The notes under the pieces are model-generated. The model saw only the letters and a program-made list of their open reading frames with translations, was not told the DNA's origin and made no database searches. A DNA stretch of 64,000 nt from Planctomycetota bacterium (GTDB taxonomy: Bacteria > Planctomycetota > PLA2), in the NCBI GenBank assembly GCA_027297745.1, contig JAPUHK010000024.1:994-64993 (forward strand), written 5' to 3'. Both the position numbers and the translations under genes were made by a program. Of this stretch, positions 16,701 through 64,000 are shown in pieces; position 1 is the stretch's first letter, and the number at the start of each line of letters is the position of its first letter.

Positions 16701-16702
16701 GC

Positions 16703-17140: not shown

Positions 17141-17154
17141 GGGGCCCTCTCAAA

Positions 17155-17175: not shown

Positions 17176-17370
17176 ATGAAGAAAGAGTACTCTACAGACC
17201 CTATTTAGCTCGGTCAATCTTTCGCGCCCGCTCCCCGTCGGTTGCTCCGATCCCCTGCAAATCGTTGATCGGTAGGGCGTTGCGCGCCTCGGGGCGCGGC
17301 GCGTCTGCCACGCCTCCAGGGGTCTACATGGTTGCTCTGCCGCCGGTCGCGGACTGGGGGTGCCCCATCG

Positions 17371-18525: not shown

Positions 18526-18596
18526 GGGGCCTTATCCTAGCTTTCCAGCTCTGAGTACTGCTCGGACAGCAGATATGGGGGATATACTGACTAGCA

Positions 18597-23813: not shown

Positions 23814-23815
23814 TC

Positions 23816-24283: not shown

Positions 24284-24287
24284 TCCG

Positions 24288-25087: not shown

Positions 25088-25097
25088 CGCCGAAGTC

Positions 25098-27056: not shown

Positions 27057-27073
27057 TTCTGCTTTAGGAAACG

Positions 27074-28624: not shown

Positions 28625-30183
28625 TGCTGCTGGGTGCGGAAGCCTTTATCCCCGACGTCTCGGCGTTGTTCAGCCACTTCGGCGCGGAAGTCGTGCTGGC
28701 GTTGGGGATCCCCTTGCTCCTCGTGGCGGACCTGTTCACCCGCCGCAACAAGGAGTCGGTCACCGGCGCTCTCTCGCTGGTGCTGTTGACCGTCGCCCTC
28801 GTGCTCGGGCTCTGGCAGGACTCCTCCAGCAGCGTCGGTCTGACGAGCCTCTTGCGCGCGGACGGGCTGGCCAAGGGCTTCCGCGTGATCGCGCTGGCCA
28901 GCGGCGTGATCACCGCGGTGGCAGCACTGCGCGGCGGTGACGCGGTGCGCCACCGGACGGAGTTCTTCGTGCTCCTGATGGGGGCCGTACTCGGCGCCTG
29001 CCTCACGGCGGCCGCGAACGAGATGGCCATGCTGTACCTCGCGATCGAGACGCTGTCGATCGCCGGGTACCTGCTGGCCGGCTTCAAGCGGCGCGATCCG
29101 CAGGGCTCGGAGGCCGCGCTGAAGTACATCATCTTCGGCGCCATCTCCTCCGGCATGATGCTGTACGGCCTGACCTTGCTGTACGGCTTCGGCGGGACGA
29201 GCCTCTTGACCACGCCGCCGGGCGCCCCTGAAGGCACCGTTTCGCTGCAGTCCTATCTGCAAGAGAACGCCTCGGCGCTCGCCATGAAGCCCGCCTTCAT
29301 CGCCGCCGTGGTGCTGGTGTTCGCGGGCCTGGCCTACAAGATCGCCGCGGCGCCGTTCCATTTCTGGTGCCCCGACGTCTACCAGGGCGCGCCCACCTCG
29401 GTGGCGGGTTTCCTGGCCGTTGCCGGAAAGGGCGCCGGGCTGGCCGCCTTCATCCGCATCGTGCAGGCCGTCACCGGCGGCGCCGGCGACCACATCACGG
29501 ACCTCTTGGCCAGGCACAACGACGTGATCCGCACGGTGCTGATCGGCATGTCGATCGCGACCATGACGATCGGGAACGTAGCCGCGCTGCGCCAGCGCAA
29601 CGCCAAGCGGATTCTGGCCTACAGCGCCATCGCGCACGCGGGCTACATCCTGATGGGTCTCACGGTCACCAGCCGCGCGGGCGCGACGGCCATGCTCTTC
29701 TACATGGGCGTCTACGTGTTCATGACGTTCGGCGCCTTCTTCATGGTGGCGCTCGTGGAGCGCGAAAAGGGTAGCTGCGACCTGTCGGCCTTCGAGGGGC
29801 TCGGGTTCCGTGCGCCCTTCTTCGCCGTGTCCTTCGCGATCGTGCTGATCAGCCTGACGGGCCTGCCGCCGACCGGCGGCTTTTGGGCCAAGGTGTTCCT
29901 GTTCGAGGGCGTGTTCAGCTACGGCGGCGCGCACTCCTCGAGCCTGTACCTGTGGTTCGGCGTGATCGGCCTGCTCAACGGGGTCATCTCGCTGGTCTAC
30001 TACGCCCGCTTCCTGAAGGCCATGTACCTGGCCGACCCGGAGCACAACACCGGCTCCGGGCTGGAGCTCGGCCTGGCGGACAAGAGCATGGTGTTCGCCA
30101 TGACGCTGCCGCAGCTGGTGCTCGGCGTGATGTTCGCTGGGCTCTACGAGACGGCGCAGCTTCTGGTCGTGGATCTCTTCTGA
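28624..30183 (+). CDS. nuoN: NADH-quinone oxidoreductase subunit N.
   Basis: 519 aa. WCPDVYQGAPTSVAGFLAVAGKGAG motif. TGATG overlap with nuoM. Confidence 0.88.
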   Translation: MLLGAEAFIPDVSALFSHFGAEVVLALGIPLLLVADLFTRRNKESVTGALSLVLLTVALVLGLWQDSSSSVGLTSLLRADGLAKGFRVIALASGVITAVAALRGGDAVRHRTEFFVLLMGAVLGACLTAAANEMAMLYLAIETLSIAGYLLAGFKRRDPQGSEAALKYIIFGAISSGMMLYGLTLLYGFGGTSLLTTPPGAPEGTVSLQSYLQENASALAMKPAFIAAVVLVFAGLAYKIAAAPFHFWCPDVYQGAPTSVAGFLAVAGKGAGLAAFIRIVQAVTGGAGDHITDLLARHNDVIRTVLIGMSIATMTIGNVAALRQRNAKRILAYSAIAHAGYILMGLTVTSRAGATAMLFYMGVYVFMTFGAFFMVALVEREKGSCDLSAFEGLGFRAPFFAVSFAIVLISLTGLPPTGGFWAKVFLFEGVFSYGGAHSSSLYLWFGVIGLLNGVISLVYYARFLKAMYLADPEHNTGSGLELGLADKSMVFAMTLPQLVLGVMFAGLYETAQLLVVDLF

Positions 30184-50801: not shown

Positions 50802-51329
50802 CTACGGGTCGTAGAAGACCTGGGTCCACCAGGGGCCGCCCGAGGCGTTGTGCACACCCACGCCGAGCCGCGTGAAGGACGCGCTGAGGATGTTGGCGCG
50901 GTGGCCGGCGGAGTTCATCCAGGCGATCATGACCGACACCGGGTCCGGCTGGCCGCGCGCGATGTTCTCGCCCGCCGCGCTCCAGGTGATGCCGGCCAGC
51001 GAGAGCCGGTCCCACGGCATCTGGCCGTCCGGGTTCTGGTGATCGAAGAAGGCGCGCAGGTCCATGTCGACGCTGTGGTCGTAGGCCACCTGGGACGTGG
51101 GGTCGTGCCAGGTCAGGGGCGCGACTCCCGCATTGACCCGCTCGACGTTCGTGAGGTCGAAGACCTGCATCGCCCAAGCGAGTTCCTGAACGGACATCTG
51201 CCCGCCGCCGCCGCCGCCGGTGCCGATCGAGGTGGTCCCGGAATCGCTGCTGCCGGTGCAGGCGGGAACCAGCAGCAACAGCGCGGTCAGTGCGGCGGTG
51301 AGGAAGGGAGTCCGTTTCAGCATGGACAT
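50802..51329 (-). CDS. CAP/SCP/PR-1-like domain lipoprotein.
   Basis: Lipobox LLVPACTGS. A Gly-rich linker. CAP signatures HYTQVVW-like (GHRANIL, WWTQVFYDP). Confidence 0.7.
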   Translation of the reverse strand: MSMLKRTPFLTAALTALLLLVPACTGSSDSGTTSIGTGGGGGGQMSVQELAWAMQVFDLTNVERVNAGVAPLTWHDPTSQVAYDHSVDMDLRAFFDHQNPDGQMPWDRLSLAGITWSAAGENIARGQPDPVSVMIAWMNSAGHRANILSASFTRLGVGVHNASGGPWWTQVFYDP

Positions 51330-51401
51330 TACGCTGCCTAATCTTCGTCGCCCCCGGCCGGGGCTTGAGGCGGCGCCCAAAGGCCCCATTCTGGAGGGCT
51401 T

Positions 51402-52745
51402 TCAGGGCTGCCGCGGAGCGCGCATCGCGCGCCCGTGCTGGTGCAGCGTCAGGGCCACGACCCTGCCGTCCTGCTTGTGGAAGGTGATGCGCGCGTCGAC
51501 CACTTTGTAGAAGAAGCTCGTCTCCGACTCGGGAAAGACCTGCAGCTTGGCCTGGCCTGTGGCCTGCACCATGAGCTTGTCGCCCTCGCGGGTGACCGTC
51601 AGCACAAACTGCGGCGTGAGCGCGTACGCGCCCGCGTAGGCGTCGTAGATCTTCGGGTCGACCTGCGCCTCCCGGGGCGGCTGCTCTCCACGCAGCAGCT
51701 TCATGATCCGCCGGCCGACGCTGTCGATCACGCCGTCGGCCGTGTTGCTGAGAATGACGAGAGCGTGCCCGCGCTGCGTGTCCACCGCTGCGAAGGAGTG
51801 GTAGCCGCCGGTCTGGCCGTTGTGCCTACGGTAGCCGAGCGGGTCGATGTGCCAGCCGAGCCCGAGCTTTTGCGCCTGGGGCGCGCCGGGCTTGTGGTGT
51901 ACCTTGCGCGCCAGCGCCAGGGCCGCGTGCATGCCGCCGTCCTTCTCTGCCAGATTCGCCTGCAGGAACGCCAGCATGTCGCGCACGGAGGAGCGAATGC
52001 CGCCCGCTCCGGCCAGCGTGGGGATGTCCCAGGTGGAGGACGGCACCCCGTTGGCCCGGTAGGGGGGTGCGAGCCGCTTGCGCATGTCCTGCGTGTACAC
52101 GATGCGCGTGCTCGGCATACCGAGCGGCTCCGTGATGCGCTCGACGAGCAGCGCCTCGTAGCTCTTGCCCGCCTTGCGCGCCAGCGCATGCCCTAGCAGG
52201 CCTGCGCCGAGGTTGCTATACGCGCTCTTCAGCCCTGGAGCGCGCTTCAAGGTGCAGCCGGACAAGAAGGCGTACATCAGCGCCGGCGTGTAGTCCGCGT
52301 AGGGATTGTTGGGATCCTTCGGGGCGAAGTTGCTCGGCATGCGCGGCAAGGCCGAGGTGTGCGTGGAGAGATCGACCAACGTGATCTTGCGCCCCCCGTG
52401 CGCCGGCACCTGCACCGTGTCGGGCAAGAGCTGCTCGAGCGGCTGGTCGAGGCGGACGCTGCCGTCCTGCACGAGCGCCGCCAACAGCACGCCCGTAAAG
52501 ACCTTGCTGATCGATCCGATCTCGTAGACGGTGTCCTGATCGGGCACGTCTTTCTCGCCCACTGTGACCTTGCCGTACCCGCGCACCCACGGCTGCTTGT
52601 CGCGCGCCTCGATCACGCCGATCGTCATCCCCACGACGCTGCCGCTCCCGATTACCGGCTGCGCGAGGGCGTCGACCTCCCGCGCGAGGTCTTTGGCGGC
52701 CGCGCACGGCAGGGCCACGAGCAAGATGAGCAGAACGCCTCTCAT
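51402..52745 (-). CDS. Secreted serine hydrolase of the beta-lactamase / penicillin-binding-protein family (class C-like).
   Basis: Signal peptide MRGVLLILLVALPCAAA. SxxK motif in YEIGSISKVF. A YxN-type motif (YSNLG). About 447 aa. Confidence 0.8.
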   Translation of the reverse strand: MRGVLLILLVALPCAAAKDLAREVDALAQPVIGSGSVVGMTIGVIEARDKQPWVRGYGKVTVGEKDVPDQDTVYEIGSISKVFTGVLLAALVQDGSVRLDQPLEQLLPDTVQVPAHGGRKITLVDLSTHTSALPRMPSNFAPKDPNNPYADYTPALMYAFLSGCTLKRAPGLKSAYSNLGAGLLGHALARKAGKSYEALLVERITEPLGMPSTRIVYTQDMRKRLAPPYRANGVPSSTWDIPTLAGAGGIRSSVRDMLAFLQANLAEKDGGMHAALALARKVHHKPGAPQAQKLGLGWHIDPLGYRRHNGQTGGYHSFAAVDTQRGHALVILSNTADGVIDSVGRRIMKLLRGEQPPREAQVDPKIYDAYAGAYALTPQFVLTVTREGDKLMVQATGQAKLQVFPESETSFFYKVVDARITFHKQDGRVVALTLHQHGRAMRAPRQP

Positions 52746-52990
52746 GACCACCCTCCAAGGGTAATCGACGGCGCGCCCACGCACGACGCTGCCGTCTGCG
52801 CACGCGCGCAAGCGCGTAGGCGCACGGTGGCGATTGGACGAATGCGTGCAGTCGTTCCAACCACGCCGCCCGTGCGCCGGATCCCCGTTGGAGCGCTCGA
52901 ACCTTATCGTGCACCGCGAGCGGCACCCGTGTTGCGTATGCGGAGGCGGGCTAAGGGACGAGCGGAGCCTCAACCGAGAGAGGAGAGCTC

Positions 52991-53496
52991 ATGCGTAAGG
53001 GAACGATCGCCCTGTGTCTACTCGTCTGTGCTGCAGGCACCTACGCGGCAGTCGAGTGGACCGTCGGCAACGGAGACGCAGGCGGGGCCAATCTGCATCA
53101 GATGGGCAAGTCCGGCATCAAGGCTCGCATCCGTATCGTGGATCACGGTGACCCGGCCGCGGGTCTCGAGGTGACGGGCACGGCCACGGGCCTCGACCCG
53201 GGCCAAGCCTATTTCTCGCTGTTTTACGACAGCAGGGCCAAGCCCTCCGGTCCTTCGGCCTGCGCGCCCAACGTGCCGGGCGCCCTGACCCCGCCTCAGA
53301 TGTTCATCTCCTTCTGGCAGGTGGACGGCAACGGCAACGGCACGCTGCACGTGACCAAGACCGGCCCCTCCTACGCCGCTCTGGGCGCCCTGGGGGGGCC
53401 ATGTCGATCCGTCTGGGCGCCACCGGCGCGCTGCAGGCCTGCGGTAAGGTCACTCCCGCCGACGAGTCCGCGCGCACCTGCCGCCTCCAGCGTTGA
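52991..53496 (+). CDS. Secreted Cu/Zn-SOD-fold (CHRD-like) protein interrupted by a frameshift at a G7 homopolymer.
   Basis: Signal peptide MRKGTIALCLLVCAAGTYAA. LEVTGTATGLDPGQAYFSLFYD resembles the SodC beta-barrel, but the His ligands are replaced. After the G-run at 53392-53398 the shifted frame reads MSIRLGATGALQACGKV, matching the SodC C-terminal (SRLACGVIG) motif, and stops at 53496. Confidence 0.45.
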
Positions 53497-53566
53497 CCCA
53501 CGATCCCAACGAAAAGCGGGGCGCCCGTTTCAGGGCGCCCCGCGCTGTTGGCTGTGAGTCCGTGGA

Positions 53567-56395
53567 CTAGGGTCCGCTGACGTAGTTGCCGGCGTTGCCC
53601 CCGATGTTGCCGTTGGCGTCCAGCCAGGAGTCCAGGTGGATTCCGATGGCCGGGTCGGGGTTGGTCAGCCTGTCGATCAGCGTGCCCGTCAGCGGTCCCG
53701 CCATGGTCGGGTTGGGCGTGCCCGTGCGCAAGCTCGGGCCCGTCCCCGGCATGAGCGGGTGGTTGCTGGAGCTCGTCGGAGTTCCGTCCGCGAGCACGAT
53801 GCTGTCCAGGTTGTAAGCGATGCGGGTCATGAACGTGGCCGGGTCGAAGGCCGTCGCCGGCGCGACCGTCACGTTCTGGATGCCCGGATCGGCGAAGATG
53901 CCGTACCGGTTCGGGTTCTGGTCCAGCGGGTTGATAGCGCCGCCGTTCCCGTCGAACAGGAACAGCCCCGTACCCAGGCCGGCCACCATGTGCACCCAGA
54001 AGGGTGAGTTCATCTGGTTGCCGGAGTTCTGGCCGAAGTGCTGCCTCAGCTCCGTGAAGTCCAGTTGATCGTAGCTTCCGCTCGCCATGGCGGAACGGAA
54101 GGCCACGTACTCGGTCCCGTACTGCTGCATACCCGCCTCGGTGATGTGGCACGCGACGCAGTAGCGCGGGCCCTCCATGGTGGAGGTGACGCGGCCGCGG
54201 ATCGAGTGGGCCATCATCGCGTTGTGACCGAGCGAGGGCGTTTGGTTGGGGTCGCTCCCCTGCGCCTTGCGGTCGGAGAACGTGAAGATGCTGGACAGCT
54301 GGTTGTTGCGGTCCTCCCACTGGAAGAACATCTTCGTGTTCGAGCTGACCTGCGTGATCTCGTTGTGCGGGCTGATGCCCAGCGCCATGAACACGGGCGA
54401 CTGGTACACGAACTCGGCCTCGTCCTCCTCGAAGACGATGCGCTCGCCCGTGATGTTGCTGAAGTCATTCGAGTACTCGCCCTTCAGGTGACAGCCCATG
54501 CACGTGTTCGTCCACGAAGCGTGGCAGGACGCGCAGTCCAGGTCGTCCGTGTGGCTGAAGTTGCTCGGGACCGCGTTGTTCGCCTGGATCGGACCTATGC
54601 CGGTCGTGCCCAGGCCGTCGTCACGGCCCATCGCATAGGAGGCCTTGTCGCTGTACAGGGGCGCCCCGCTGAACGGGTGCGTCCGGCCCGTGTTCACGGT
54701 GACGTCCAGCGTCTGCGGGACGAAGTGACGCGCGCCCGTGAGACGGCTGTACAGGTAGAAGTGGCCGTCGCTCTCCAGCACGACGTGCGCCAGGGTGTTC
54801 CCCTCGCCGTCCACCGCCAGCTCCTGGGTGGTGTTGTCGTAGGCCGTGCCTTGAGCCGTCTGGGCATAGGCCGCGACGCCGCCGTGGCAGCTCTCGCAAC
54901 GGATCCCCACGGCGTGCTCCATGCGGCTCACGATCTTGCCGCCGCTCGGGGAGGTCACGTCGCCGCCGTGCAGGTCGAAGCTGCCGTGGCAGTCGATGCA
55001 GCCCATGCCGGCCTCGTAGTGCACGTCGGGCGGGGTGTCGTCGCGGCCGTCGTCGTCGTAGTCCTCCTCGAGGAGGTACTGGTTGCGGTTGCGCCCGTTG
55101 AACTCGCGGTTCCCCAACCGGATCAGGACGCCGTTCTGGTCGTAGATCGGCAGGTTGGGGTCGAACAGGCGCGTGTCGCCGGAGGTCGTCCGGTAACTTC
55201 CCGGCTGCGACGGGTACTGGAAGCCGCGCCGCACGTCCTGGTTCTGGTCGAGGCGGATGCCCCAGTACTGCATGACCGTGCGGTTCGAGCCCTGGTGGCA
55301 GCCGGCGCAGGCGTAGTCGTCGATGCCCTGGACGAACTCGCCGCTGGACAACGTCTTGGCCACGGTGCGGATCAGGTGGCGGGCGACGTGCGGCAGCTCG
55401 GGCTCGTCGATGTCGTCCGGATCGTACGGCTCCATGCGGTTGAGGTTCGGATCGTTGCTGGTGGAGCGCCCGCTCAGGCTGTGGCGCATGTGGCACGCCG
55501 AGCAACCCGAGCCGCGGTAGTCGCCGTAGCGGTTGTTCGCGCCGGCGCTGCCGAGGTGGCAGTCTCCGCAGGTGTAGGCGATCTGCTCGTGATAGAGCTT
55601 CGCCAGCGGGGAGTCCGTGATCGCCTGGCCCGTCAGCGGATCGATGTCGTCATCGAGCTCGGCGGCGTCGAAATCCGGGTTGTTGCGGATGTCGTTCGGG
55701 CCGTTGTTGAAGCGCCGGCTGTAGACCGGGAACTCCATCAGGTTTTGCACCGAACCGAAGGTCGTCGGGTCGAAGCTCTGGTCCGTGACGGCGCGAATGC
55801 CCAGGTCGGCGGCCGTGTCCTCGTAGCCCGTGTACCCCATCTGGTTGTCCACGCCGGCCGCGAACATCGCGCCGGAGAAGATGCCCATCTCGGTGGCGAT
55901 CGGGCTCTGGGACACGATCTGCGCGTGGTTCGCGTGGCACTGGCCGCAGCTGCGGTTCTGCGTGACCACGCGGATGTCGGCCGGGCTGACGAACTGCAGC
56001 CAGTCCAGCGCGCTGTAGGTCTGCCCGTTCGCGGCCGTGTAGTCCGGGAACTTGTCCGGACCGGCCAGGGTCAGCCGGTTGAAGTAGGCGTGGTCGTTGT
56101 TGATCCAGTTCTGCCGGTCGCCGATCTCGGGCGGCGCCGGGACGTGGCTCGAGGCCCTGTCCGTCCCGTTCGGGTTTCCGCCGTGGCAGGTGGTGCACAG
56201 CAGGTTGCTGGCGCCCGTGAAGGGGTGTGGGTTCTCGAGGCCCGGGCCCCCGTAGTTGTTGTCCACGGAGCCGTTGTGGCAGGTCATGCACGACTGGGCC
56301 GACGCTGTGATCGCGCGGCCGCTGGAGTCGACGCAGCCCGTCACGACGAACGCCAGTAGGAAGATGACTGAGAGGAGACCTCTGTGATGAGTCAT
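53567..56395 (-). CDS. Undecaheme c-type cytochrome lipoprotein (outer-membrane / extracellular multiheme cytochrome candidate).
   Basis: Lipobox LAFVVTGC. Eleven CxxCH motifs (CMTCH, CTTCH, CGQCH, CGDCH, CSACH, CAGCH, CIDCH, CESCH, CASCH, CMGCH, CVACH) in about 940 aa. The ATG at 56395 has an alternative GTG at 56407. Confidence 0.85.
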   Translation of the reverse strand: MTHHRGLLSVIFLLAFVVTGCVDSSGRAITASAQSCMTCHNGSVDNNYGGPGLENPHPFTGASNLLCTTCHGGNPNGTDRASSHVPAPPEIGDRQNWINNDHAYFNRLTLAGPDKFPDYTAANGQTYSALDWLQFVSPADIRVVTQNRSCGQCHANHAQIVSQSPIATEMGIFSGAMFAAGVDNQMGYTGYEDTAADLGIRAVTDQSFDPTTFGSVQNLMEFPVYSRRFNNGPNDIRNNPDFDAAELDDDIDPLTGQAITDSPLAKLYHEQIAYTCGDCHLGSAGANNRYGDYRGSGCSACHMRHSLSGRSTSNDPNLNRMEPYDPDDIDEPELPHVARHLIRTVAKTLSSGEFVQGIDDYACAGCHQGSNRTVMQYWGIRLDQNQDVRRGFQYPSQPGSYRTTSGDTRLFDPNLPIYDQNGVLIRLGNREFNGRNRNQYLLEEDYDDDGRDDTPPDVHYEAGMGCIDCHGSFDLHGGDVTSPSGGKIVSRMEHAVGIRCESCHGGVAAYAQTAQGTAYDNTTQELAVDGEGNTLAHVVLESDGHFYLYSRLTGARHFVPQTLDVTVNTGRTHPFSGAPLYSDKASYAMGRDDGLGTTGIGPIQANNAVPSNFSHTDDLDCASCHASWTNTCMGCHLKGEYSNDFSNITGERIVFEEDEAEFVYQSPVFMALGISPHNEITQVSSNTKMFFQWEDRNNQLSSIFTFSDRKAQGSDPNQTPSLGHNAMMAHSIRGRVTSTMEGPRYCVACHITEAGMQQYGTEYVAFRSAMASGSYDQLDFTELRQHFGQNSGNQMNSPFWVHMVAGLGTGLFLFDGNGGAINPLDQNPNRYGIFADPGIQNVTVAPATAFDPATFMTRIAYNLDSIVLADGTPTSSSNHPLMPGTGPSLRTGTPNPTMAGPLTGTLIDRLTNPDPAIGIHLDSWLDANGNIGGNAGNYVSGP

Positions 56396-56630
56396 TTCTG
56401 ATCTCACTTTGCCCGACCCCTCCGGCGGCGACCGCCGGAGTCCGAGCGAGAGGGCGTGAGAGCCGGCCCCACGAGGGAGAGACCAACACGCGGTAGTCCG
56501 ATGCTAGGAACGGGTATCACTTGGAGGGGGGCCTGAGAGACGCAACTTGAGACTTCAGCCGGAGCGTCTCGTTGTGAGGCGGCTCGATCGGAAACGCCGG
56601 CGGTCTGCCCCACAAACCGTGCGGGGCCGC

Positions 56631-57278
56631 TCAATTGACGGCCGGCACCCATGCCGTGGGCACGTGGCACTCGTGGCAGTTGTCGACGAAGCCCAGCGGG
56701 ATGTGGGGGGGATTGGTGGTGTTGTTCCGGTCGTCCACGTGGCACGTGACGCACTCGGTGTCCACGGGGATGAAGTTGCCGACCCGCGCGCCCGGGTGGC
56801 AGCGGTAGCAGGCCACCAACGTGTGGGCGCCGAGCAGCGGGAAGCGCGTCCGGTCGTGGAGCGCGATCTGGCCCACGGGGCGCCAGGTCTGCTCGGTGTG
56901 GCAGCGGGTGCAGTCCTTGTCCAGGTCGCCGTAGTGGTAGTCCTCGTGGCAGCCCGTGCAGCCCTGCGAGTGGAAGATCGCCACAGGCCCGCGGTCGTTG
57001 TGGCAACGCAGACATTGCGCCTGCTCATGAGCCCCGTTGAGAGCGAAGCCGGTGTTGGCCAGGTGGTTGAACTTGAAGTCGCTCTTGAGCTTGTTCCAGT
57101 CACCGCCCACGTGGCACAGCTGACAGTCGGCCGGGAACGAGTCGTGCGGCAGGACCGGTCCGAAACCCGCCCACCAACGGTGCTGCTTGCCGGTCAGCGG
57201 GCGCGCGGCGGCGCAGGCCAACAGGATCGCGCTCAGGAGCGCGATCGCGATCGGGCGTCTACGGAATCGGAATCGCAT
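56631..57278 (-). CDS. Periplasmic heptaheme c-type cytochrome.
   Basis: Signal peptide MRFRFRRRPIAIALLSAILLACAAA. Seven CxxCH motifs (CQLCH, CLRCH, CTGCH, CTRCH, CYRCH, CVTCH, CHECH) in about 215 aa. A GAGAG ribosome-binding site lies 12 nt after the OMP stop codon. Confidence 0.85.
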   Translation of the reverse strand: MRFRFRRRPIAIALLSAILLACAAARPLTGKQHRWWAGFGPVLPHDSFPADCQLCHVGGDWNKLKSDFKFNHLANTGFALNGAHEQAQCLRCHNDRGPVAIFHSQGCTGCHEDYHYGDLDKDCTRCHTEQTWRPVGQIALHDRTRFPLLGAHTLVACYRCHPGARVGNFIPVDTECVTCHVDDRNNTTNPPHIPLGFVDNCHECHVPTAWVPAVN

Positions 57279-57290
57279 GGGTATCAACTC

Positions 57291-59081
57291 TCAAAAGCCC
57301 TTCTGCCAGGTGAACCCAGCGGACCACGAGATCTCCTTGTCGTAGGCGACGACCTCCCCGAACACGTAGACGTCCCAGTTTCCGACGCGATAGACGCTCA
57401 AGCTGCCGCGCAGACGTTGCTGCACCAGGTCGTCCCGGTTCGCGTTCAGGCCGTGGATGTGGTGGAAGGCAAGCTCGTACATCAGGTCCCACCTGCCCTT
57501 GGCCGTCGTGCGGCCGTAGAGGAGACGCACGCCCGCCACGCTCTCGTACTGGCCGATGTTGCCGTAGCCGACGAGGTCCAGGTGCGCCTGGCGCCGCAGC
57601 GTCTGTTCGACGCCGATGTCGAACGCGCCGCCGCTGCCGTCCTCGTCGACCCAGCCGCTGACGTGCCCGTGCAGGCGCCTGTCGGCGCCCAGCATCTTCC
57701 AGAGGTTCAGCGCCAGCCGGTCGAACTCGTTGTTCGCCAGGTCGGCGGCGAAGACGATGGGACGGTATTCGCCCTCCCGCAAGAGCTCTGCGAACGCCCA
57801 GTGCTGATAGAGGAACTGGATGCCGCCCCGGGCGAAGGTGCGGTTCAGGGAGGCGATGGCCTGCGTGATCTCTATGCCTGAGCCCTTGATCGGGTCGCTG
57901 GCGGAGTAGAAGTCGACCCAGATCGTGGCGTGGAAGGCCCAGCCGTCCACCGGCAGAACGTGCATGCGGGCCACCAGGAGGTCGCGGTCCGGGTTGCCGT
58001 TGTTCCAGGTCTTCTGGAAGCCGCCGGCGATCAGGAAACGCTCGTTCGGGTCCTGCACCCACTCGTACCAGCCCGCCAGCTGGAAGTCCTCGAAGGTGTC
58101 GAAGTCGTCGTTCAGCTCCGGCATGTAGCCCATGCTCACGCCGTAGCGGTGCCCGTTGTCGCCCCTATGCGCCCACTGCAGGCCGTCCAGCACGCCGAAC
58201 TCGGGCATGCCGTGCTGCAGGAAGCGGCCGACCTCCCAGCGGTTGCTGTTGAAGCGATTTCCGCCGCGGAAATAGGAGAGGCGGCGCAGCAGGAAGTCCC
58301 CCGTGAGGTCGCTGTTGTACTTGTAGTTCGCCAGGTAGGCCGCCTCCGCGTTGAGGCGGAAGCCGCCGCCCTTGCCGAAGGGATTCGAGTAGGTCAGGTC
58401 CGTGCCGACTCGCAAGTAGGAGCTGGTGAAGTCGCTGTCGGGGTTGTCCGTCACCGCGGCGCTCACATAGGTGAAGCCGGCGAGCCCCTTCCGGCGGTTC
58501 TTGGGGCGCACGGCTCCGGTCTCGGCCAGCAGCGACTTGCTCGTGGACCACTCCTCGTCCTTGTTCTTCCAGGGCGGGTGTTCCGGAGTCTCGCCCTCGG
58601 TGCCCGCGGCAGCAGCGCCTCCGGCTGCCGCTGCACCTGCGGCGACTCCGGCGCCGTCTTTGTCCTTGTCTTCCGGCTCGCCTTCGCCTTCCGGCTTGGT
58701 GCCTTCCCCTTCAGGCTGTCCGCCTTCGGGTTCCGGTTGCAGTTCGGGCTCCGGCTCAGGATCGGGTTGCGTGAAGCGCGAAGCCGGGATCAGCACTTCG
58801 CCGCGCGTGCCCGCTTCGGGAACGAACTTGGCGTCGCGCATCTCGACCACCGCGCTGCGCGCGCGGACCGAGAGCACGGTTCCGGAATAGGTGCCGCCCT
58901 GGCGCGGGAAGAAGGACACGACGTCGCCGATGGCGAGGCCGTCCCGCTTGCCGCGGTCGATGGTGACCGAGGCTCCGGGTCCCGCGGAGCTCACGCGCAG
59001 GGACACACGTTCCAGCTCTTCCTGCGCCCATGCGGACACGCAGGTCCACAGGACCATGGAGAGCAGAATTACAAGCCTCAC
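57291..59081 (-). CDS. Outer-membrane beta-barrel protein (porin-like), candidate sheath of a porin-cytochrome conduit.
   Basis: A GTG start overlaps the upstream stop codon (GTGA) and is preceded by GGAAGGAAGA. Signal peptide MRLVILLSMVLWTCVSAWA. An acidic PEPE/Gly-Ala low-complexity linker. Alternating amphipathic beta-strands. C-terminal aromatic residues FTWQKGF. Confidence 0.75.
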   Translation of the reverse strand: MRLVILLSMVLWTCVSAWAQEELERVSLRVSSAGPGASVTIDRGKRDGLAIGDVVSFFPRQGGTYSGTVLSVRARSAVVEMRDAKFVPEAGTRGEVLIPASRFTQPDPEPEPELQPEPEGGQPEGEGTKPEGEGEPEDKDKDGAGVAAGAAAAGGAAAAGTEGETPEHPPWKNKDEEWSTSKSLLAETGAVRPKNRRKGLAGFTYVSAAVTDNPDSDFTSSYLRVGTDLTYSNPFGKGGGFRLNAEAAYLANYKYNSDLTGDFLLRRLSYFRGGNRFNSNRWEVGRFLQHGMPEFGVLDGLQWAHRGDNGHRYGVSMGYMPELNDDFDTFEDFQLAGWYEWVQDPNERFLIAGGFQKTWNNGNPDRDLLVARMHVLPVDGWAFHATIWVDFYSASDPIKGSGIEITQAIASLNRTFARGGIQFLYQHWAFAELLREGEYRPIVFAADLANNEFDRLALNLWKMLGADRRLHGHVSGWVDEDGSGGAFDIGVEQTLRRQAHLDLVGYGNIGQYESVAGVRLLYGRTTAKGRWDLMYELAFHHIHGLNANRDDLVQQRLRGSLSVYRVGNWDVYVFGEVVAYDKEISWSAGFTWQKGF

Positions 59082-61156
59082 CGCTTTTCTTCCTTCGCGC
59101 CCCGGCGGAACGGGTTCTCGTCCTCGCCGTGGCAATCGGCGCACCTGCCCCCCATCGGGCGATAGCGGATGAAGTCTTTACCGTTCTCGCGAACTGGTAA
59201 ATGGCAGGCGGAGCAGGCCAGGGGGGTGTGGGCCTCCCCGAGCTGGAAGCTCGAGTCCAGGTCGTGGCGGAAGCTCAGGTCCGTGAAGGCCGCAGCGGCA
59301 GGCCTGTGGCAGCTCCGGCAGTCGGTCAGCCCCTTCACCTCGAACTGCCCGGCATGGGAATCCTGGTGGCAATCCGAGCAGTGGCCGCCCTTGGCGCGGG
59401 CCCAGGTGCGCCCGGCCTCGTCCGGCTCCCGCAGGGGGGTGTGGCAGTCGGCGCAGTCGACTTTCTTGTGCTGGCCGACCAGGGCGAAGCCGGTCCAGCG
59501 CTTGTGGTCGAAGCCGTTCGGGAAGGTCCGGAACGAGCTCTCGCCGTGGCAGCGCTCGCAGCCGGTCTTGCCCTTGAAGGTGCGCGGCATGCCGGGCTTG
59601 TCGAAGTCGTTCTTGTGCGGATCGATGTGGCACGTGTCGCACCCCTCGTACACGCCGAAGCGATCCGAGACGCGGCCGAACGTGCGGCCGAAGCGGTCGG
59701 GTTCCGGGGTGCGCGGGTGGCAGGCCTCGCACTCCTCCTGCGCGTGGGCCGCGACTAGCGGGAACCCCGTCCACGGGCCGTGGTCGAAGGCCTCGGGCGG
59801 GATGTCCCGGAAGTCCGTGGCCAGGTGGCAGTCGGCGCAGCGGCCGTACGTGCTCGCCGATGTCTCCGGCGCGAACTGCTCGAAGAACCCCTCGTGCGGG
59901 TCCGGATGGCATCCGGCGCACTTGACGGGAGTCCCGTGGAACACGCGCGGGCTGCCCTCGATGGGCGCCGCCTCGTGGCACGCGTTGCAGTCGGTCTCGA
60001 TATGGCTGCCGATCAAAGGCAGGGACGTCTCCGCGTGCATCTCGACGCTGAAGATGTGCGGCTCGAAGTAGAGCGTCCCGTGGCAGGCGACGCACGCGCC
60101 GCTCTTGAACGAACCCTCGCCGAACTGGCCGCCGTGGGGATCCTCGTGGCACGCGGCGCAGTCGTCGGCCGCGCGGGCCGGGTAGCGGGCCTTGAAGTCC
60201 TCGTGGTTGAGATCGTGGCAGTCCGCGCAGCCCACTTCGTGATGCGGATCGGTGAGCGAGAACCCGGAGCTTTCGTGCTGCTCCACGGTCATCTCCCCGA
60301 GCTGCCTGTCGTTCCAGGTCGTGTGCTCCGCGCGATGGCACACGTCACAGGCGGCGCCGGTGGGGCGGGAGACCTGCAACGCGACGCCGTCGACGAAACC
60401 CTCGGCGTGCGAGTTCGCGTGGCAGTCCACGCACATGCGCGCGGCCGGGGCGCGATTCTCGCCTAGCGCCTCGAGCGTGTAGGGCTCGTTCGCGTGGCAG
60501 GAGCGGCACTCCATGTTGCTGTGGCCGCCGATCAGCTGCAGGTAGTCCTCGTGGCCGCGCGACTCCAGCTCCGCCCAGGCGCGTTGCCCGTGGCACTGGA
60601 CGCAGCTCAGCGCCGCGTAGCGGCCCTCGTGCACATCCCCGTGGCACGTCGTGCACTCCTGGTCGAGCCCGATGTAGCGCGTCGCGCCCTCCGGCAGGAT
60701 CTCGATGTTCACCTGCAGGTGGCACTCGTTGCAGGCCAGCTCGATGTGCCGGCCGTCCATGGGGAAGCGGATCATGTTGTGGTCGAACTCCGCCGGGTCG
60801 GGCACGCCCGCGGCCGCGAAGCTCTGCCGGTTGACGATGGCGAAGCCCGCGCCGTGGTGCTCGCTGTGGCACAACGCGCACAGCATGGCCTTGTTCCCAA
60901 TCACGCCGTGGAGTCCGTTTCCGGCGGCGATCTGCGCGTCGATCGTCTTGTGGCACTCGAGACACGCATCCGACATGCTCAGGAACAATCCGCCGTGGCA
61001 CGCGGAGCAGCTCTCGCCGCGGTTCAGGTCGCCCACGCGCGCGTGGACGGCCGTGACCTCTCCCGGTGACTTGCGCCCGAGGTGGCCGATCACGACGTAG
61101 AGCACCGCCGCAGCCGAGGCCAGGCCGATCCAGAGGCCGGGACGTCCCAGCTTCAA
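59078..61156 (-). CDS. Membrane-anchored 23-heme c-type cytochrome.
   Basis: N-terminal signal-anchor (LWIGLASAAAVLYVVIGHL). 23 CxxCH motifs counted by eye in 692 aa, about one per 30 residues. A TTG start overlaps the upstream stop codon. Confidence 0.85.
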   Translation of the reverse strand: MKLGRPGLWIGLASAAAVLYVVIGHLGRKSPGEVTAVHARVGDLNRGESCSACHGGLFLSMSDACLECHKTIDAQIAAGNGLHGVIGNKAMLCALCHSEHHGAGFAIVNRQSFAAAGVPDPAEFDHNMIRFPMDGRHIELACNECHLQVNIEILPEGATRYIGLDQECTTCHGDVHEGRYAALSCVQCHGQRAWAELESRGHEDYLQLIGGHSNMECRSCHANEPYTLEALGENRAPAARMCVDCHANSHAEGFVDGVALQVSRPTGAACDVCHRAEHTTWNDRQLGEMTVEQHESSGFSLTDPHHEVGCADCHDLNHEDFKARYPARAADDCAACHEDPHGGQFGEGSFKSGACVACHGTLYFEPHIFSVEMHAETSLPLIGSHIETDCNACHEAAPIEGSPRVFHGTPVKCAGCHPDPHEGFFEQFAPETSASTYGRCADCHLATDFRDIPPEAFDHGPWTGFPLVAAHAQEECEACHPRTPEPDRFGRTFGRVSDRFGVYEGCDTCHIDPHKNDFDKPGMPRTFKGKTGCERCHGESSFRTFPNGFDHKRWTGFALVGQHKKVDCADCHTPLREPDEAGRTWARAKGGHCSDCHQDSHAGQFEVKGLTDCRSCHRPAAAAFTDLSFRHDLDSSFQLGEAHTPLACSACHLPVRENGKDFIRYRPMGGRCADCHGEDENPFRRGAKEEKR

Positions 61157-63378
61157 CTTTTGCCCCCGAAGAAGAAGGGGTAGTACGCGAGCGCGTAGAC
61201 GATGTGGATTACCACCAGCAGCACCATCAGCGCCGCCATCCAGCGGTGCAACCAGCGCCAGGTGCCGAGCACCGCGCGCAGGTCCTCATAGTGCGCCGCC
61301 ATGAGCGCCGTGCGGTGTGCCTTGCGCGCGAGCTGCATCGTTTCCTTGATCTGCTCCTCGTCGATGCCCTCTTCACGCCCTTCGTCCTCCAGGCGTGTGA
61401 GCAAGCGCTTCAAGCCGCCCCGGCCGGTCAGCATGGACAGCACGCGCCCAAGGAACCCCGAGCCCCATTGCTTCTTCTCGATCAGCTCATCCACCGCGCT
61501 GCGCGCCCGTTCGCGGTACTCCCGTTGGCCCTGGTCCCACTCCTCGGACATGCGGCCGAGGCGGGCCTTGACCTCCTGCAGCTCCAGCTCGCGTCCGTTC
61601 GCGGCGCGCGGCACGCAGGCGTAGAAGTAGCGTCCGATGGCGCCGGTGACCAACAGCACCGCCAGCGCCCAAAAGGCGTGCCCCGCGACGGTGTTGCCGG
61701 GCGCCATGGCGCCGTGCAGCGTCGCCAGCAAGAGCGCCAGGATGCCCGTGGCGACGTGGCTCGTCATCCAGATCTGCAGGGAGCCGACGTTGAGCCGGAA
61801 GCGCGGCGAACGCCGCACCAGATAAAGGAGGTTCACGAGGATCAGCGCGGTCGCGCCGATGCCCAGCCACAGGCCGAGGCCGAGGCCCGGGCGCAGCAGC
61901 GCATGCTTCGGGTGCGCGGCGCGCGCGGAGGCCGGCAGGCCGTAGTAGTCCGCGTGCACCATGACCCAGACCAACGCGGCCAGCGAGAGTGTGAAGCCGA
62001 TGCCGAGCGCGTGGACCAGGCCCGTGCCCTGCTCGCCGAGCTGGGGCGCCGCCTTGCGCAGCGACGGGTCGAAGGACACGCCCGAGCGTTCGAGCAGCTC
62101 CAGCGGCGCGCTGCCGCCCGCCATCACGAACACCTCGTCGTTCGGCAACGTGCGCGTCGCCGTGCCGTAGCCGCTCTGCACCGTGAGCTCGACCGAGTCC
62201 GGACGGATCGCCCGCACTTCGCTGTTGAACAGGACCTCGAGCTTGCCCTCGCGCAGGCATTCGTCCAGGCGCTCCTGGTTCTTGGGTCGAATGCGGAAGA
62301 AGCTCTCCTTGCGGTACGAGAGCGTCACCTGGTTCCCCGGTTGCTCCGCGAGACCCATGGCCGCCTCGACCGCGCTGTCGCCGCCGCCGACGACCAACGT
62401 GCGCCGGTGCTGGTACGAGTGGGCGTCCAGCAGGCTGTAGGCCACCTTGGACAGGTCTTCGCCTTCCACGCCGAGCTTGCGCGGCGAGCCGCGGCGGCCC
62501 ACCGCCAGACAGACGTTGCGCGCCGTGTAACTGCCGGTCTTGGTGCGCACGACGTAATTGCCGTCGTCGTCCCGGCTAAGACCCACGAACGTCTCCTGGG
62601 AGCGGATCGGCAGCTGCTGCTCCTCCGCGATGTGCGCCCACAGCTCGACCAGCTCTTCCTTCGTGTAACTGGACTTCAGGCGGCCGTAGAGCGGCAGGTC
62701 GACCGGCTGGCTCATGATCAGCTTGCGCCGCGGGTACTTCGCGACCGTGCCGCCGGGCCCGCTCTCCTGGTCCAGCGTCACGAACTTCAGGCCGTGGCGC
62801 TTGGCCTCGAGCGAACACGCCAGGCCGGCGGGGCCGGCGCCGACCACGCACAGGTCCAGCGTGCCGTTGGGGTTGGGCTCGTGCTCCAGGCGCCGCGCGA
62901 CTTCGCCCGCTACGGCCGTTCCGTGGTCGACGGCGGTCTTGATCAGCGAGTGCGCGGTCACCTCACCCGCGAGGAACAGCCCGGGCGAGCCCACGGCCTC
63001 GAGCTGTTCGGTCAGGACCGGGATGTCCCGGCGCTCGGCGATGTCGCTCAGCGTGACCTTGATCGCGCCGACGGGGCACTCGCGCTCACACAGGGCATGG
63101 CCGACGCAGCGCGCGCCGTGCACGACCATGGCCTGGCCGTGCACGAGCTTCAGCACCTGGTCCTCGGGACAGACGTCGACGCACGTGCCGCAGCCCAGGC
63201 AGCGGGACAGATCGACGACGGGTTGGGCGAGCTGGGCCTTGTCACTCCCCTGACGGACCGCCTGCTCACGGTCGCCCAGCGCGCGGCGCATGCGCCGGAG
63301 CTCCAGGCGCCGCGCGATCGCCACCATGAGGGATAGGCCTAGGGCGACTACGACTCCAATAAGGAGGGGCCAACTCAT
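61153..63378 (-). CDS. Membrane-bound fusion oxidoreductase: N-terminal TM helix + 2x[4Fe-4S] ferredoxin + FAD/NAD(P)-binding (TrxB/GltD-like) domain + C-terminal polytopic domain with His-bearing TM helices (putative cytochrome b).
   Basis: CLGCGTCVDVCP and CVGHALCERECP. Rossmann motifs VVGAGPAGLA and VVGGGDSAVEAA. Five or six C-terminal TM helices with conserved His (MVHADYYG, TSHVATGILALLLATLHG, GHAFWALAVLL, VVIHIVYAL). GGAG ribosome-binding site before the ATG at 63378. Confidence 0.75.
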   Translation of the reverse strand: MSWPLLIGVVVALGLSLMVAIARRLELRRMRRALGDREQAVRQGSDKAQLAQPVVDLSRCLGCGTCVDVCPEDQVLKLVHGQAMVVHGARCVGHALCERECPVGAIKVTLSDIAERRDIPVLTEQLEAVGSPGLFLAGEVTAHSLIKTAVDHGTAVAGEVARRLEHEPNPNGTLDLCVVGAGPAGLACSLEAKRHGLKFVTLDQESGPGGTVAKYPRRKLIMSQPVDLPLYGRLKSSYTKEELVELWAHIAEEQQLPIRSQETFVGLSRDDDGNYVVRTKTGSYTARNVCLAVGRRGSPRKLGVEGEDLSKVAYSLLDAHSYQHRRTLVVGGGDSAVEAAMGLAEQPGNQVTLSYRKESFFRIRPKNQERLDECLREGKLEVLFNSEVRAIRPDSVELTVQSGYGTATRTLPNDEVFVMAGGSAPLELLERSGVSFDPSLRKAAPQLGEQGTGLVHALGIGFTLSLAALVWVMVHADYYGLPASARAAHPKHALLRPGLGLGLWLGIGATALILVNLLYLVRRSPRFRLNVGSLQIWMTSHVATGILALLLATLHGAMAPGNTVAGHAFWALAVLLVTGAIGRYFYACVPRAANGRELELQEVKARLGRMSEEWDQGQREYRERARSAVDELIEKKQWGSGFLGRVLSMLTGRGGLKRLLTRLEDEGREEGIDEEQIKETMQLARKAHRTALMAAHYEDLRAVLGTWRWLHRWMAALMVLLVVIHIVYALAYYPFFFGGKS

Positions 63379-63435: not shown

Positions 63436-63978
63436 CTACTTGCCGCCGGCGCTTCGCGCCCTGAGCTCCCGGTCCCGGGAGCTGCCGCTGACGTTCATGG
63501 ACGTGGCCTTGCGTCGCGTCTCGCCCTGGCTGAAGGCCGGGGCAGGCGGGCCCTCGACGGGCTGGGCGGCGCTCACGGGCAGGGCGGCCGACTCGACATA
63601 CGCGCGAGCAGCCTTCAGGCAGGCGTCGAACTCGCCGTCGAGATCAGAGACCCGCTTGGCCAGCGCGCGCGCTTCGCCCTGGATCTCGGACACGGCCACG
63701 GGGTTGAGGTCGTTGCCCAGGAAGAGCGCGTGGTCGCGCAGGCTGTTGTTGACCGCATCATAGGACGCCAGGGCGGGCTCCGCGGCCGCGACGATGGCGT
63801 GGTAACGCTCGCGAGTCTCCACCAAGCGGTTGCGGCTGCGCTGGCGCAGCTCCACGCTGCTGATGTCCTTGAGGTCATCGGCCCACTGATCGAAGACCGG
63901 ATCGCTCGAGTCCTTCATGTTCTCGATGCTGTCCCGAAGCTTTTCGGCCTGCTCCTCGGAGTTCTCGATGGCCGTCAT
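63436..63978 (-). CDS. Hypothetical protein (coiled-coil rich), possibly N-terminally truncated by the window edge.
   Basis: 180-aa track ORF ending 57 nt upstream of the oxidoreductase gene. No family recognised. Confidence 0.4.
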   Translation of the reverse strand: MTAIENSEEQAEKLRDSIENMKDSSDPVFDQWADDLKDISSVELRQRSRNRLVETRERYHAIVAAAEPALASYDAVNNSLRDHALFLGNDLNPVAVSEIQGEARALAKRVSDLDGEFDACLKAARAYVESAALPVSAAQPVEGPPAPAFSQGETRRKATSMNVSGSSRDRELRARSAGGK

Positions 63979-64000
63979 GAACTCCCCGTAGGCCGTAACC

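Follow-up and report, generated by a model that had tools for sequence, protein, structure and literature searches.

A cluster of five genes from a planctomycete appears to encode an envelope-spanning electron machine that works from the cytoplasm outward and bypasses the quinone pool, a reading to which we assign a probability of about 0.6. The genes, called A to E here, lie on the minus strand of a stretch of 64,000 nucleotides (nt) from Planctomycetota bacterium (assembly GCA_027297745.1, contig JAPUHK010000024.1, positions 994-64,993, forward strand). This whole stretch is referred to as the window, and all positions are given within it unless another record is named. A joins iron-sulfur (Fe-S), flavin and membrane domains in a single inner-membrane protein; B is a membrane-anchored cytochrome c; C is a barrel of the outer membrane; and D and E are further multiheme cytochromes, both predicted to be lipoproteins.

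The outer-membrane half of this machine represents a new family of a familiar design, in which a porin is combined with cytochromes. The surprising part is the inner-membrane half, which is read here as independent of quinones and fed by reduced nicotinamide adenine dinucleotide or its phosphate (NAD(P)H), with an anchored 23-heme partner. To our knowledge, the quinol pool is the source of electrons (through CymA, ImcH, CbcL or CbcBA) in all Gram-negative systems of extracellular electron transfer that have been studied well, and we know of no NAD(P)H input into this kind of conduit. The quinol link is what ties extracellular electron transfer to energy conservation, and it is this quinol step that the cluster would replace. 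A preliminary description made from the sequence had held the arrangement to be undescribed. This is still the case as far as full-text searches of the literature go: they returned no description of the cluster (a preprint on extracellular electron transfer in peat concerns Acidobacteriota and Verrucomicrobiota), and homologs that are named carry hypothetical or generic names.

Gene order, linkage and subtypes

Five consecutive open reading frames (ORFs) on the minus strand fill positions 53567-63378 in the ORF listing of the window (Table 1). The GC content at the third codon position, 0.87-0.93 in each of A to E, matches that of the other real genes in this window of 66-71% GC. Both the ORFs and the coding signal thus agree with the five contiguous genes proposed at the outset, as do the heme-binding motifs: there are 23 CxxCH motifs in B, 7 in D and 11 in E, exactly the heme counts first given, and none in A or C. 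Because CxxCH is absent from the 37 other likely genes of the window, a concentration of 41 such motifs in three neighbouring genes greatly exceeds what chance would give.

The stop codon of A overlaps the start of B (TTGA), the stop of B overlaps the start of C (GTGA), and C is separated from D by 12 nt. The tight coupling claimed originally holds to this point, but it does not extend to E, which follows D after a gap of 223-235 nt. In related loci this gap varies in length and sometimes contains one to several genes. When scanned, the gap in the window has neither a terminator-like nor a sigma-70-like site, while a strong intrinsic-terminator-like hairpin, which probably marks the end of the operon, follows E. 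Given these two features, it is possible that A to E are made as one transcript. (A promoter scan across 53-64 kb gave no sigma-70-like sites, and no Rfam family matched in the same region.)

A scan of one genome per species yielded 335 stretches with a gene related to A. Of these loci, the 80 with the best matches were examined by tblastn with six window proteins, and linkage was counted where enough sequence was present; the records are labelled Planctomycetota, a subgroup of it, or just 'bacterium'. B follows A in every locus (69/69), and C and D are missing once each (63/64 and 56/57, respectively), so that these homologs occur together and not routinely as unlinked single genes. Loci retrieved through C rather than through A have the same gene order. 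E is found within 10 kb of A-B-C-D in 28 of 45 loci, and a homolog of the DUF2959-family gene that lies upstream of A in the window is present upstream of A in 44 of 73. The invariant unit is therefore A-B-C-D, and E and DUF2959 mark only one of two subtypes; the unit of five genes drawn up in the preliminary description is correct for its first four members, with E standing outside the invariant core. Genes for cytochrome c maturation (ResB/CcsB and CcsA) lie directly upstream in related loci, and in the longer ones they precede DUF2959.

In the subtype represented by the window, DUF2959 and E are present, B has 23 hemes and D has 7. In the second subtype, which includes loci L071, L076 and L079, identity to the window proteins is 52-57% for A and 24-33% for C, the hemes of B number 26, and E and DUF2959 are absent. 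The D homolog of this subtype keeps the lipobox and the N-terminal module and has 13-25 hemes; in L071 and L076, where the downstream genes are readable, further lipoproteins with 12-16 hemes follow. At least five metagenome-assembled genomes (MAGs) carry both subtypes (L008/L074, L037/L052, L011/L078, L005/L079 and L051/L073).

The sole cultured carrier among the 80 loci is Saltatorellus ferox Poly30 (DSM 103386; L042, NZ_CP036434, ~1.690-1.712 Mb). Here A (~1,700,235-1,702,466), the 23-heme B, C and the 7-heme D adjoin one another, and E lies ~4.7 kb further on, past three unrelated genes. The other carriers are for the most part uncultured. A strain that is both cultured and fully sequenced makes the hypothesis directly testable; the description of the Saltatorellota strain (a preprint) mentions neither cytochromes nor anaerobic growth. 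The cluster is also carried by at least nine OFTM MAGs, which come from an Fe/Mn-oxidising biofilm in the Oslofjord tunnel, and in the published analysis of these genomes the FeGenie hits for iron reduction were limited to four MAGs of Planctomycetota (PMC10732223). With four of its five proteins annotated as hypothetical or only in generic terms, the cluster probably escapes the iron-gene pipelines now in use.

The five proteins and the proposed electron route

A is the best conserved protein of the cluster, with more than 120 full-length homologs at 60-72% identity (92-100% of A covered) and one more at 95%. Those that are named are annotated as 'NAD(P)-binding domain-containing protein', 'thioredoxin reductase' or 'hypothetical protein'. 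Pfam recognizes a ferredoxin-like domain (Fer4_7, 2.1e-8) and a flavin adenine dinucleotide (FAD)/NAD(P) domain (Pyr_redox_3, 3.4e-45), the second of which bears out the Rossmann oxidoreductase noted previously. The ferredoxin-like domain departs from what had been described. In an alignment of 59 full-length sequences, which is also the basis of the other invariant positions of A given here, it has seven invariant Cys residues (C60, C63, C66, C70, C91, C97 and C101). The first Fe-S motif is complete; the second reads CxxxxxCxxxCP (C91-x5-C97-x3-C101-P) and lacks the middle Cys in all 59 sequences, with H, I or V there instead. A 2x[4Fe-4S] ferredoxin, which the preliminary description had seen in A, has eight Cys in two complete CxxCxxCxxxCP motifs, and A does not. 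Since only seven Cys ligands are available, A probably carries one [4Fe-4S] and one [3Fe-4S] cluster.

The next domain has the two-Rossmann fold for FAD and NAD(P)H. Its nearest solved relatives are YpdA/Bdr (7a7b, 5.8e-22) and the ferredoxin-NADP reductases that resemble thioredoxin reductase (TrxR); Bdr and TrxR are likewise the top Foldseek matches of the A model, and the GxGxxG and GGGDSA motifs are invariant. (With the full model Foldseek returns thioredoxin-reductase-fold matches only, and the membrane domain is invisible to that search.) Several source annotations make A a thioredoxin or bacillithiol-disulfide reductase. This candidate was rejected: the scores against the equivalog models are far below cut-off (TIGR04018, 150 bits against 339.9; TIGR01292, 71.5 against 343), the whole protein has no CxxC outside the Fe-S motif and so no redox-active pair of this kind, and the domain is fused to Fe-S and heme-b modules.

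The C-terminal part of A had been described as a His-rich polytopic domain. It does have five membrane helices, but the conserved His residues number only four. The last 290 residues hold exactly four invariant His, of which H541 and H555 lie on helix 534-555 and H711 and H725 on helix 708-731, each pair 14 residues apart. Four His on two transmembrane helices are characteristic of the DUF4405 and ferric-reductase-domain cytochromes, and the membrane domain is predicted to hold two b hemes; in the ferric reductase domain of NADPH oxidases (NOX) and FRE proteins, in MsrQ, and in PepSY-like and DUF4405 proteins, four His on two helices likewise stack two b hemes. Several close homologs of A carry precomputed matches to PF14358, PF01794 or PF01292 (DUF4405, Ferric_reduct and cytochrome b561, respectively). 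When the membrane domain alone was used in a search of the whole library, 1478 representatives were found, many of them stand-alone proteins of ~297 amino acids (aa), and one stand-alone relative (P0398) scores 27.9 bits on DUF4405, where the cut-off is 26.7. A DUF4405 protein of Oscillospiraceae with four central His has been purified and binds heme b, and it was proposed by the authors to be an electron carrier across the cytoplasmic membrane (PMC11334425). Among the relatives from this search (P0398, P0405, P0412 and others), the membrane domain with its cytoplasmic insert is found both on its own and in other architectures of 380-1125 aa. Its relatives with an organism name are from Planctomycetota (the 297-aa P0412 cluster, and forms of 558 and 1125 aa).

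The N-terminal helix of A is followed by nine Arg/Lys residues, and there is no twin-arginine signal. These signals place the Fe-S and FAD domains in the cytoplasm. The two His helices would consequently run from inside to outside, and H541 would pair with H711 and H555 with H725, each pair lying at a matching depth. A reads as a route from NAD(P)H to FAD, to the Fe-S clusters, to one heme b, to the other heme b and to the periplasm, which is the logic of NOX and FRE enzymes built from other parts. In NADPH oxidases and in the ferric reductases of yeast and plants, as in A, the membrane domain is joined in one polypeptide to an NAD(P)H flavoprotein of the cytoplasm, so that electrons depart directly from the cell side. 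However, the flavoprotein of A has the TrxR fold and is N-terminal, whereas that of NOX is C-terminal and of the ferredoxin-NADP-reductase type. In addition, A differs from NOX-type enzymes in having an Fe-S domain within the path and a cytoplasmic insert of ~110 aa in the membrane domain, and its acceptor would be a 23-heme cytochrome c, while the NOX-type relatives deliver electrons to O2, an Fe(III)-chelate or a flavinylated protein.

B, which matches Cytochrome_C7 in Pfam (1.3e-30), is laid out in a repeat alignment as two hemes plus seven three-heme repeats of the c7 type. There are 23 hemes in 53 of 67 homologs, and 22, 24, 26 or 29 in the rest. At its N-terminus B has one hydrophobic helix that lacks an evident cleavage site and is followed by an SPGP motif; helix and motif are both kept across the 67 homologs, as would be expected of the signal-anchored 23-heme cytochrome described before. 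Residues 505-683 weakly resemble MtrA/DmsE (TIGR03508; 60.9 bits, cut-off 192.2), and identities by tblastn in the related loci are 33-54%. The three-heme c7-like repeats are shared with the polymeric c7 nanowire cytochromes of Geobacter (GSU1996), and the heme numbers of B homologs step by three (23, 26, 29), as in the polymeric c7 design. B differs from GSU1996 in that it is anchored in the inner membrane, is about twice as long and has no relatives detectable in a sequence search of the PDB. Since the 12-heme GSU1996 protein is ~12 nm long, an extended B could bridge the periplasm. In one public MAG (locus L003, 7816-9868), five short minus-strand gene calls lie over an intact B homolog (45% identity by tblastn, residues 1-683), which points to an error of gene calling in that record and not to a loss of B.

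C matches no family in Pfam or NCBIfam. A homolog search in which scoring was limited to the 8000 candidates with the most words in common with the query gave at least 148 homologs at E<=0.001; the 120 that were listed are 34-49% identical to C, the best at 49%. All those with a source name are called 'hypothetical protein', and the organisms, where given, are Planctomycetota, Planctomycetes or Planctomycetaceae. The 105 homologs that were aligned are 36-49% identical. The AlphaFold2 model of C (106 sequences) has a predicted local distance difference test (pLDDT) score of 87 and a predicted template modelling (pTM) score of 0.79, and it consists of a cleavable-looking signal peptide, a six-strand domain, a linker and a barrel. 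R29, D42, R43 and G44 are invariant in the N-terminal domain. The linker of ~90 aa is poorly conserved and varies in length among homologs, and residues 110-190 have pLDDT values of 41-63. The barrel has 22 antiparallel strands, most of them with pLDDT >90, and the terminal F596 is nearly invariant. All structural neighbours of C are outer-membrane barrels, and the closest are substrate porins of the Occ family. As modelled, C is an outer-membrane barrel that is roomy enough for a protein domain and is not specifically MtrB-like. The prediction of a 22-strand barrel upholds the earlier identification of this 596-aa protein as an outer-membrane beta-barrel.

D and E each hold exactly one Cys beyond the heme motifs, and in both proteins it lies within a lipobox. 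The lipobox of D ends in ILLAC, with the Cys kept in 64 of 64 homologs, and D is accordingly predicted to be a lipoprotein. Of the 215-aa periplasmic heptaheme cytochrome first described, the seven hemes stand, but a soluble protein of the periplasm does not agree with the lipobox. In Pfam and NCBIfam, D has only matches below cut-off, with none to MtrA/DmsE (TIGR03508), and a look-up of its exact sequence returned no record. The lipobox of E ends in VVTGC, and 11 hemes and a lipobox are present in 31 of 31 homologs; with 942 or 946 aa, depending on the start codon, E is in essence the 940-aa undecaheme lipoprotein that had been predicted. More than 120 homologs are 56-69% identical to E over ~940 aa, and every one with a source name is a 'hypothetical protein'. 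Matches of E to known families are weak and below cut-off, and concern c3/c7, MtrC and ExtM: it scores 20.8 bits on PF22113 (MtrC/OmcA-type; cut-off 30), and its best curated match is ExtM of a Geobacter operon for selenite/tellurite reduction (59 bits, cut-off 800). In a sequence search of the PDB only a nitrite reductase was found (E=0.094). There is no CxxCK or other atypical heme motif in the sequence of E, and its conserved His and Met suffice as sixth ligands for all 11 hemes. E is a candidate for the terminal, surface-side component. (An invariant acidic loop, EDYDDDGRDDTPPD, at residues 445-457 of the 942-aa form, window 55037-55075 (-), lies just before the seventh heme motif of E and resembles a calcium-binding motif of the DxDxDG type.) Taken together, the anchors of A and B, the signal peptide of C and the lipoboxes of D and E are consistent with the chain from inner membrane to cell surface that the preliminary description had laid out.

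The route that is proposed from these parts would begin with the oxidation of cytoplasmic NAD(P)H at the thioredoxin-reductase-fold FAD domain of A. Electrons would then move through A's own Fe-S domain, with its probable [4Fe-4S] and [3Fe-4S] clusters, and cross the inner membrane by way of two stacked b hemes, one held by H541 and H711 on the cytoplasmic side and the other by H555 and H725 on the periplasmic side. B, anchored beside A, would take the electrons, and its 23 hemes could span the periplasm. At the outer membrane, barrel C would enclose a cytochrome. This is most likely the 7-heme D, which is preferred because it is small (~27 aa per heme), because its gene is coupled to that of C, and because the loci that lack E have a longer version of it; the other candidate is the C-terminal, MtrA-like part of B. 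On the far side, E would accept the electrons and pass them to an extracellular or surface acceptor. The genes with their motifs, domain families and signal types, the modelled barrel fold and the strict linkage are observations; the contacts between the proteins, the exposure of E at the surface, the direction of flow, the nature of the acceptor and the cofactor content are parts of the proposal.

Known systems, direction of flow and rival explanations

The closest likeness is to the porin-cytochrome complexes (Pcc) of Geobacter sulfurreducens. The order of barrel, small multiheme cytochrome and large multiheme lipoprotein is that of OmbB-OmaB-OmcB and of the Ext clusters, and the sizes and heme counts of D (7) and E (11) are similar to those of the Geobacter proteins, OmaB having 8 hemes and OmcB 12. 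Some Ext clusters also include lipoprotein cytochromes, as is the case here, and E has its weak match to ExtM. However, unlike the Geobacter complexes, no member of the A-E cluster reaches the cut-off of any curated porin-cytochrome family, D is a predicted lipoprotein, and C has an additional N-terminal domain and linker. There was no match to Pcc-specific models in NCBIfam and Pfam, libraries whose OmbB/OmaB content is uncertain, and the likeness is one of gene order and heme numbers. The input differs as well: in Geobacter, quinol-oxidising ImcH, CbcL and CbcBA work with soluble three-heme carriers, whereas here an NAD(P)H/Fe-S/heme-b fusion would work with the anchored 23-heme B.

The likeness to MtrCAB of Shewanella is more distant. 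C does not belong to the MtrB/PioB family, D has no MtrA/DmsE match, and E is below cut-off on MtrC/OmcA and has 11 hemes, not 10. The MtrB barrel has 26 strands compared with 22 in C, which is structurally nearer to Occ porins and ushers. CymA, the quinol dehydrogenase of Shewanella, has no counterpart in the cluster. The cluster was considered as an Mtr or Pcc homolog, and this was rejected, as no family model that defines either system reaches its cut-off. What remains of the Mtr/Pcc-like logic seen initially is a barrel beside multiheme cytochromes, in a gene order like that of ombB-omaB-omcB, with no match at the level of families that reaches a cut-off. Two features of porin-cytochrome systems as a class are present in the cluster: the predicted 22-strand barrel is flanked by B and D in nearly all loci (63/64 and 56/57), and E and D, with their lipoboxes (31/31 and 64/64, respectively), are candidate lipoproteins for the outer face. 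A dedicated entry for NADH-derived electrons, separate from the main chain, is known from Listeria (Ndh2, EetA/B and PplA), and in this respect that system resembles the cluster. The Listeria route, however, runs through flavinylated proteins and a quinone reserved for it, the envelope is Gram-positive, and it has no hemes and no outer-membrane barrel.

The preliminary description regarded the direction of electron flow as undecidable. The topology of A now favours outward flow on thermodynamic grounds, given a cytoplasmic NAD(P) site, a two-heme relay and no quinone or proton-coupled module. Outward transfer to Fe(III), Mn(IV), humic substances or O2 is downhill and is assisted by the membrane potential, whereas inward transfer is uphill on both counts. 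The reverse arrangement was also considered, in which Fe(II), Mn(II), a cathode or a syntrophic partner outside the cell supplies electrons that enter via E/D, C and B, and A reduces NAD(P)+ for biosynthesis. Porin-cytochrome complexes work both ways, with MtoAB and PioAB of Fe(II) oxidisers as the established inward example; several of the carrier MAGs (OFTM) are from an Fe/Mn-oxidising biofilm (PMC10732223); and the sequence itself does not fix the direction. Nevertheless, electrons moving inward through A would travel against the membrane potential, Fe(II) or Mn(II) would have to reduce NAD(P)+ (about -320 mV), a strongly uphill reaction, and A has no proton-coupled or quinone module to pay for this step. 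Known Fe(II) oxidisers feed cytochrome oxidases and drive reverse flow through bc1 and complex I, with no direct relay of this kind. An inward conduit is therefore judged very improbable.

With outward flow, A pumps no protons and dissipates membrane potential. Consequently, a redox valve or the reduction of Fe(III)/Mn(IV) minerals or chelates at the surface, possibly for iron acquisition, is the likely role, and classical energy-conserving respiration is less likely. Genes for an ordinary complex I (nuoD, H, J, L, M and N) are also present in the window, which makes A an additional outlet for NAD(P)H and not the sole one. The presence of the cluster in an aerobically grown isolate fits the role of redox valve or surface reduction. 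A more specific version of this idea is put forward only tentatively, at well below even odds. In it, many Planctomycetota export electrons by a route not recognised before, a 'bacterial NOX with a 41-heme extension cord' that is driven by NAD(P)H, needs no quinones and spans both membranes and the periplasm, and whose job is perhaps NAD(P)H-powered surface reduction and not anaerobic respiration. Such surface jobs could include dissolving particulate Fe(III)/Mn oxides for iron, or converting O2 to extracellular superoxide.

If the proposal of outward, quinone-independent transfer is correct, electrons from cytoplasmic pyridine nucleotides are sent straight to the cell surface, and the energetics change, since membrane potential is dissipated. 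The expected physiology would shift from respiration to a redox valve or to reductive metal acquisition. Planctomycetota, which abound in sediments and wastewater and on marine particles, would gain a direct predicted role in the redox cycling of Fe, Mn and humic substances. With superoxide formation or surface reduction as the job, there would also be an enzymatic source for the output of extracellular reductants and superoxide by marine heterotrophs, which is widespread but poorly explained.

Several observations weigh against an outward conduit to the surface. A itself is below the Pfam cut-offs for the families to which its membrane domain is compared (DUF4405, 19.5 bits, cut-off 26.7, 1.4e-3; Ferric_reduct, 19.8 bits, cut-off 28, 8.7e-4), and its AlphaFold2 model is of moderate quality (pLDDT 72.7, pTM 0.48). 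Many unrelated barrels are at least as close to C in structure as MtrB is. In 17 of 45 loci there is no E within 10 kb, and the conservation of E (56-69%, compared with 36-49% for the aligned homologs of C and 33-54% by tblastn for B) is unusually high for a promiscuous surface reductase, which hints at a specific enzyme or partner. Finally, an aerobically grown carrier is a poor fit to simple anaerobic metal respiration.

In a rival reading, the proteins are the same but the purpose of the cluster is periplasmic. A, B and D would then feed E as a substrate-specific multiheme reductase on the periplasmic face of the outer membrane, C would be a channel for substrate or product, and no electrons would cross the outer membrane; the substrate would be soluble, such as selenite, tellurite, or a sulfur or nitrogen species. 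The high conservation of E over its whole length agrees with this, as do its large non-heme regions (11 hemes in 942 aa), which are typical of enzymes, its best curated match to ExtM, and the nitrite reductase that is its sole PDB match. By default, lipoproteins sit in the inner leaflet of the outer membrane unless exported, and the closest structural relatives of C are, as noted, substrate porins. On the other hand, E has no atypical heme motif, and with sixth ligands sufficient for every heme it has no obvious open catalytic heme. The subtype without E has a D of 13-25 hemes and further multiheme lipoproteins, which looks like the extension of a wire, and the translational coupling of a 22-strand barrel to a small cytochrome with 7 hemes is a hallmark of porin-cytochrome systems. 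A periplasmic reductase is on balance an unlikely explanation, although less so than reversed flow.

The place of A in the chain can be questioned separately. A might be a maintenance or assembly factor for the neighbouring cytochromes, for example one that maintains periplasmic heme or the thiols of apocytochromes in the reduced state, or an NAD(P)H-driven repair system similar to MsrQ, with B receiving its electrons from the quinol pool via an unlinked dehydrogenase. ResB/CcsA maturation genes do lie just upstream in related loci, the flavin domain is nearest to the thiol-related YpdA/TrxR family, and some of the two-heme-b relatives, MsrQ for instance, act for repair enzymes (PMC11334425). 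However, A has no redox-active CxxC of the kind used by disulfide reductases, it is better conserved than any other protein of the cluster, and it adjoins B in 69 of 69 loci, with overlapping start and stop codons in the window. The anchor of B is plain and has no quinol site. No NapC/NirT, NrfD or CbcL-type cytochrome b was detected among the five window proteins or in the three related loci with precomputed Pfam tables. This negative covers these sequences only, since tblastn with six window proteins was the sole screen applied to the further 80 loci. That A merely services the chain is thus improbable, and A as the NAD(P)H-oxidising entry to an outward conduit is preferred.

Feature coordinates and neighbouring genes

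Table 1. Positions of the cluster genes, their domains and other features in the window (residue numbers refer to the proteins; pLDDT from AlphaFold2)
Feature	Position	Strand	Remarks
Gene A	61153-63378	-	741 aa; inner-membrane Fe-S/flavin/membrane-domain fusion
A residues 53-110, ferredoxin-like Fe-S domain	63049-63222	-	seven invariant Cys
A residues 175-440, thioredoxin-reductase-fold FAD/NAD(P)H domain	62059-62856	-	Pyr_redox_3; no redox-active CxxC
A residues 454-731, five-helix membrane domain	61186-62019	-	~110-aa cytoplasmic helical insert; helices from AlphaFold2 model
Gene B	59078-61156	-	692 aa; membrane-anchored 23-heme cytochrome c
Gene C	57291-59081	-	596 aa from GTG overlapping B stop; outer-membrane barrel (modelled)
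C residues 23-99, small N-terminal beta domain	58785-59015	-	six strands, pLDDT 81-93
C residues ~101-182, linker	58535-58780	-	low-complexity, acidic, Pro/Glu/Gly/Ala-rich, PEPEPELQPEPEGGQPEGEG…AAAGGAAAAG
C residues 199-595, 22-strand beta-barrel	57297-58487	-	DSSP on AlphaFold2 model
Gene D	56631-57278	-	215 aa, or 218 aa from TTG at 57287; 7-heme cytochrome c
D/E intergenic spacer	56408-56630	-	223 nt; 235 nt if E begins at ATG
Gene E	53567-56407 (GTG, 946 aa) or 53567-56395 (ATG, 942 aa)	-	11-heme lipoprotein cytochrome c (predicted)
Intrinsic-terminator-like hairpin	53516-53543	-	stem of 11 G-C pairs, 6-nt loop, then TTTTCGTT; directly after E stop
DUF2959-family gene	63436-63999	-	Pfam DUF2959 6.3e-22; upstream of A; cut by window end
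Class-V aminotransferases, cysteine desulfurase type	11916-13181 and 17371-18525		SUF region
SufC-like ABC ATPase	14430-15185		SUF region
SufB/D	15237-17153		SUF region
A-type Fe-S carrier	18597-18932	+	SUF region

The match of the gene upstream of A to DUF2959 spans profile positions 63-188 of 190, which places the N-terminus of this protein beyond base 64000. Further away, a region for SUF Fe-S assembly occupies positions 11916-18932, and the complex I genes lie at 21022-30183 (+), where they encode a 49-kDa/NuoD-like subunit, NuoH, NuoJ and three antiporter subunits of the NuoL/M/N type. An ORF of 188 aa with a signal-peptide-like N-terminus and no Pfam match (52991-53557, +) converges on the end of E. 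Just downstream of E, positions 50802-52973 (-) encode a secreted CAP-domain protein and a member of the beta-lactamase family that has a DUF3471 domain. A gene of the beta-lactamase family is also found near the cluster in locus L001 (18142-19221), a likeness to the window that is probably coincidental.

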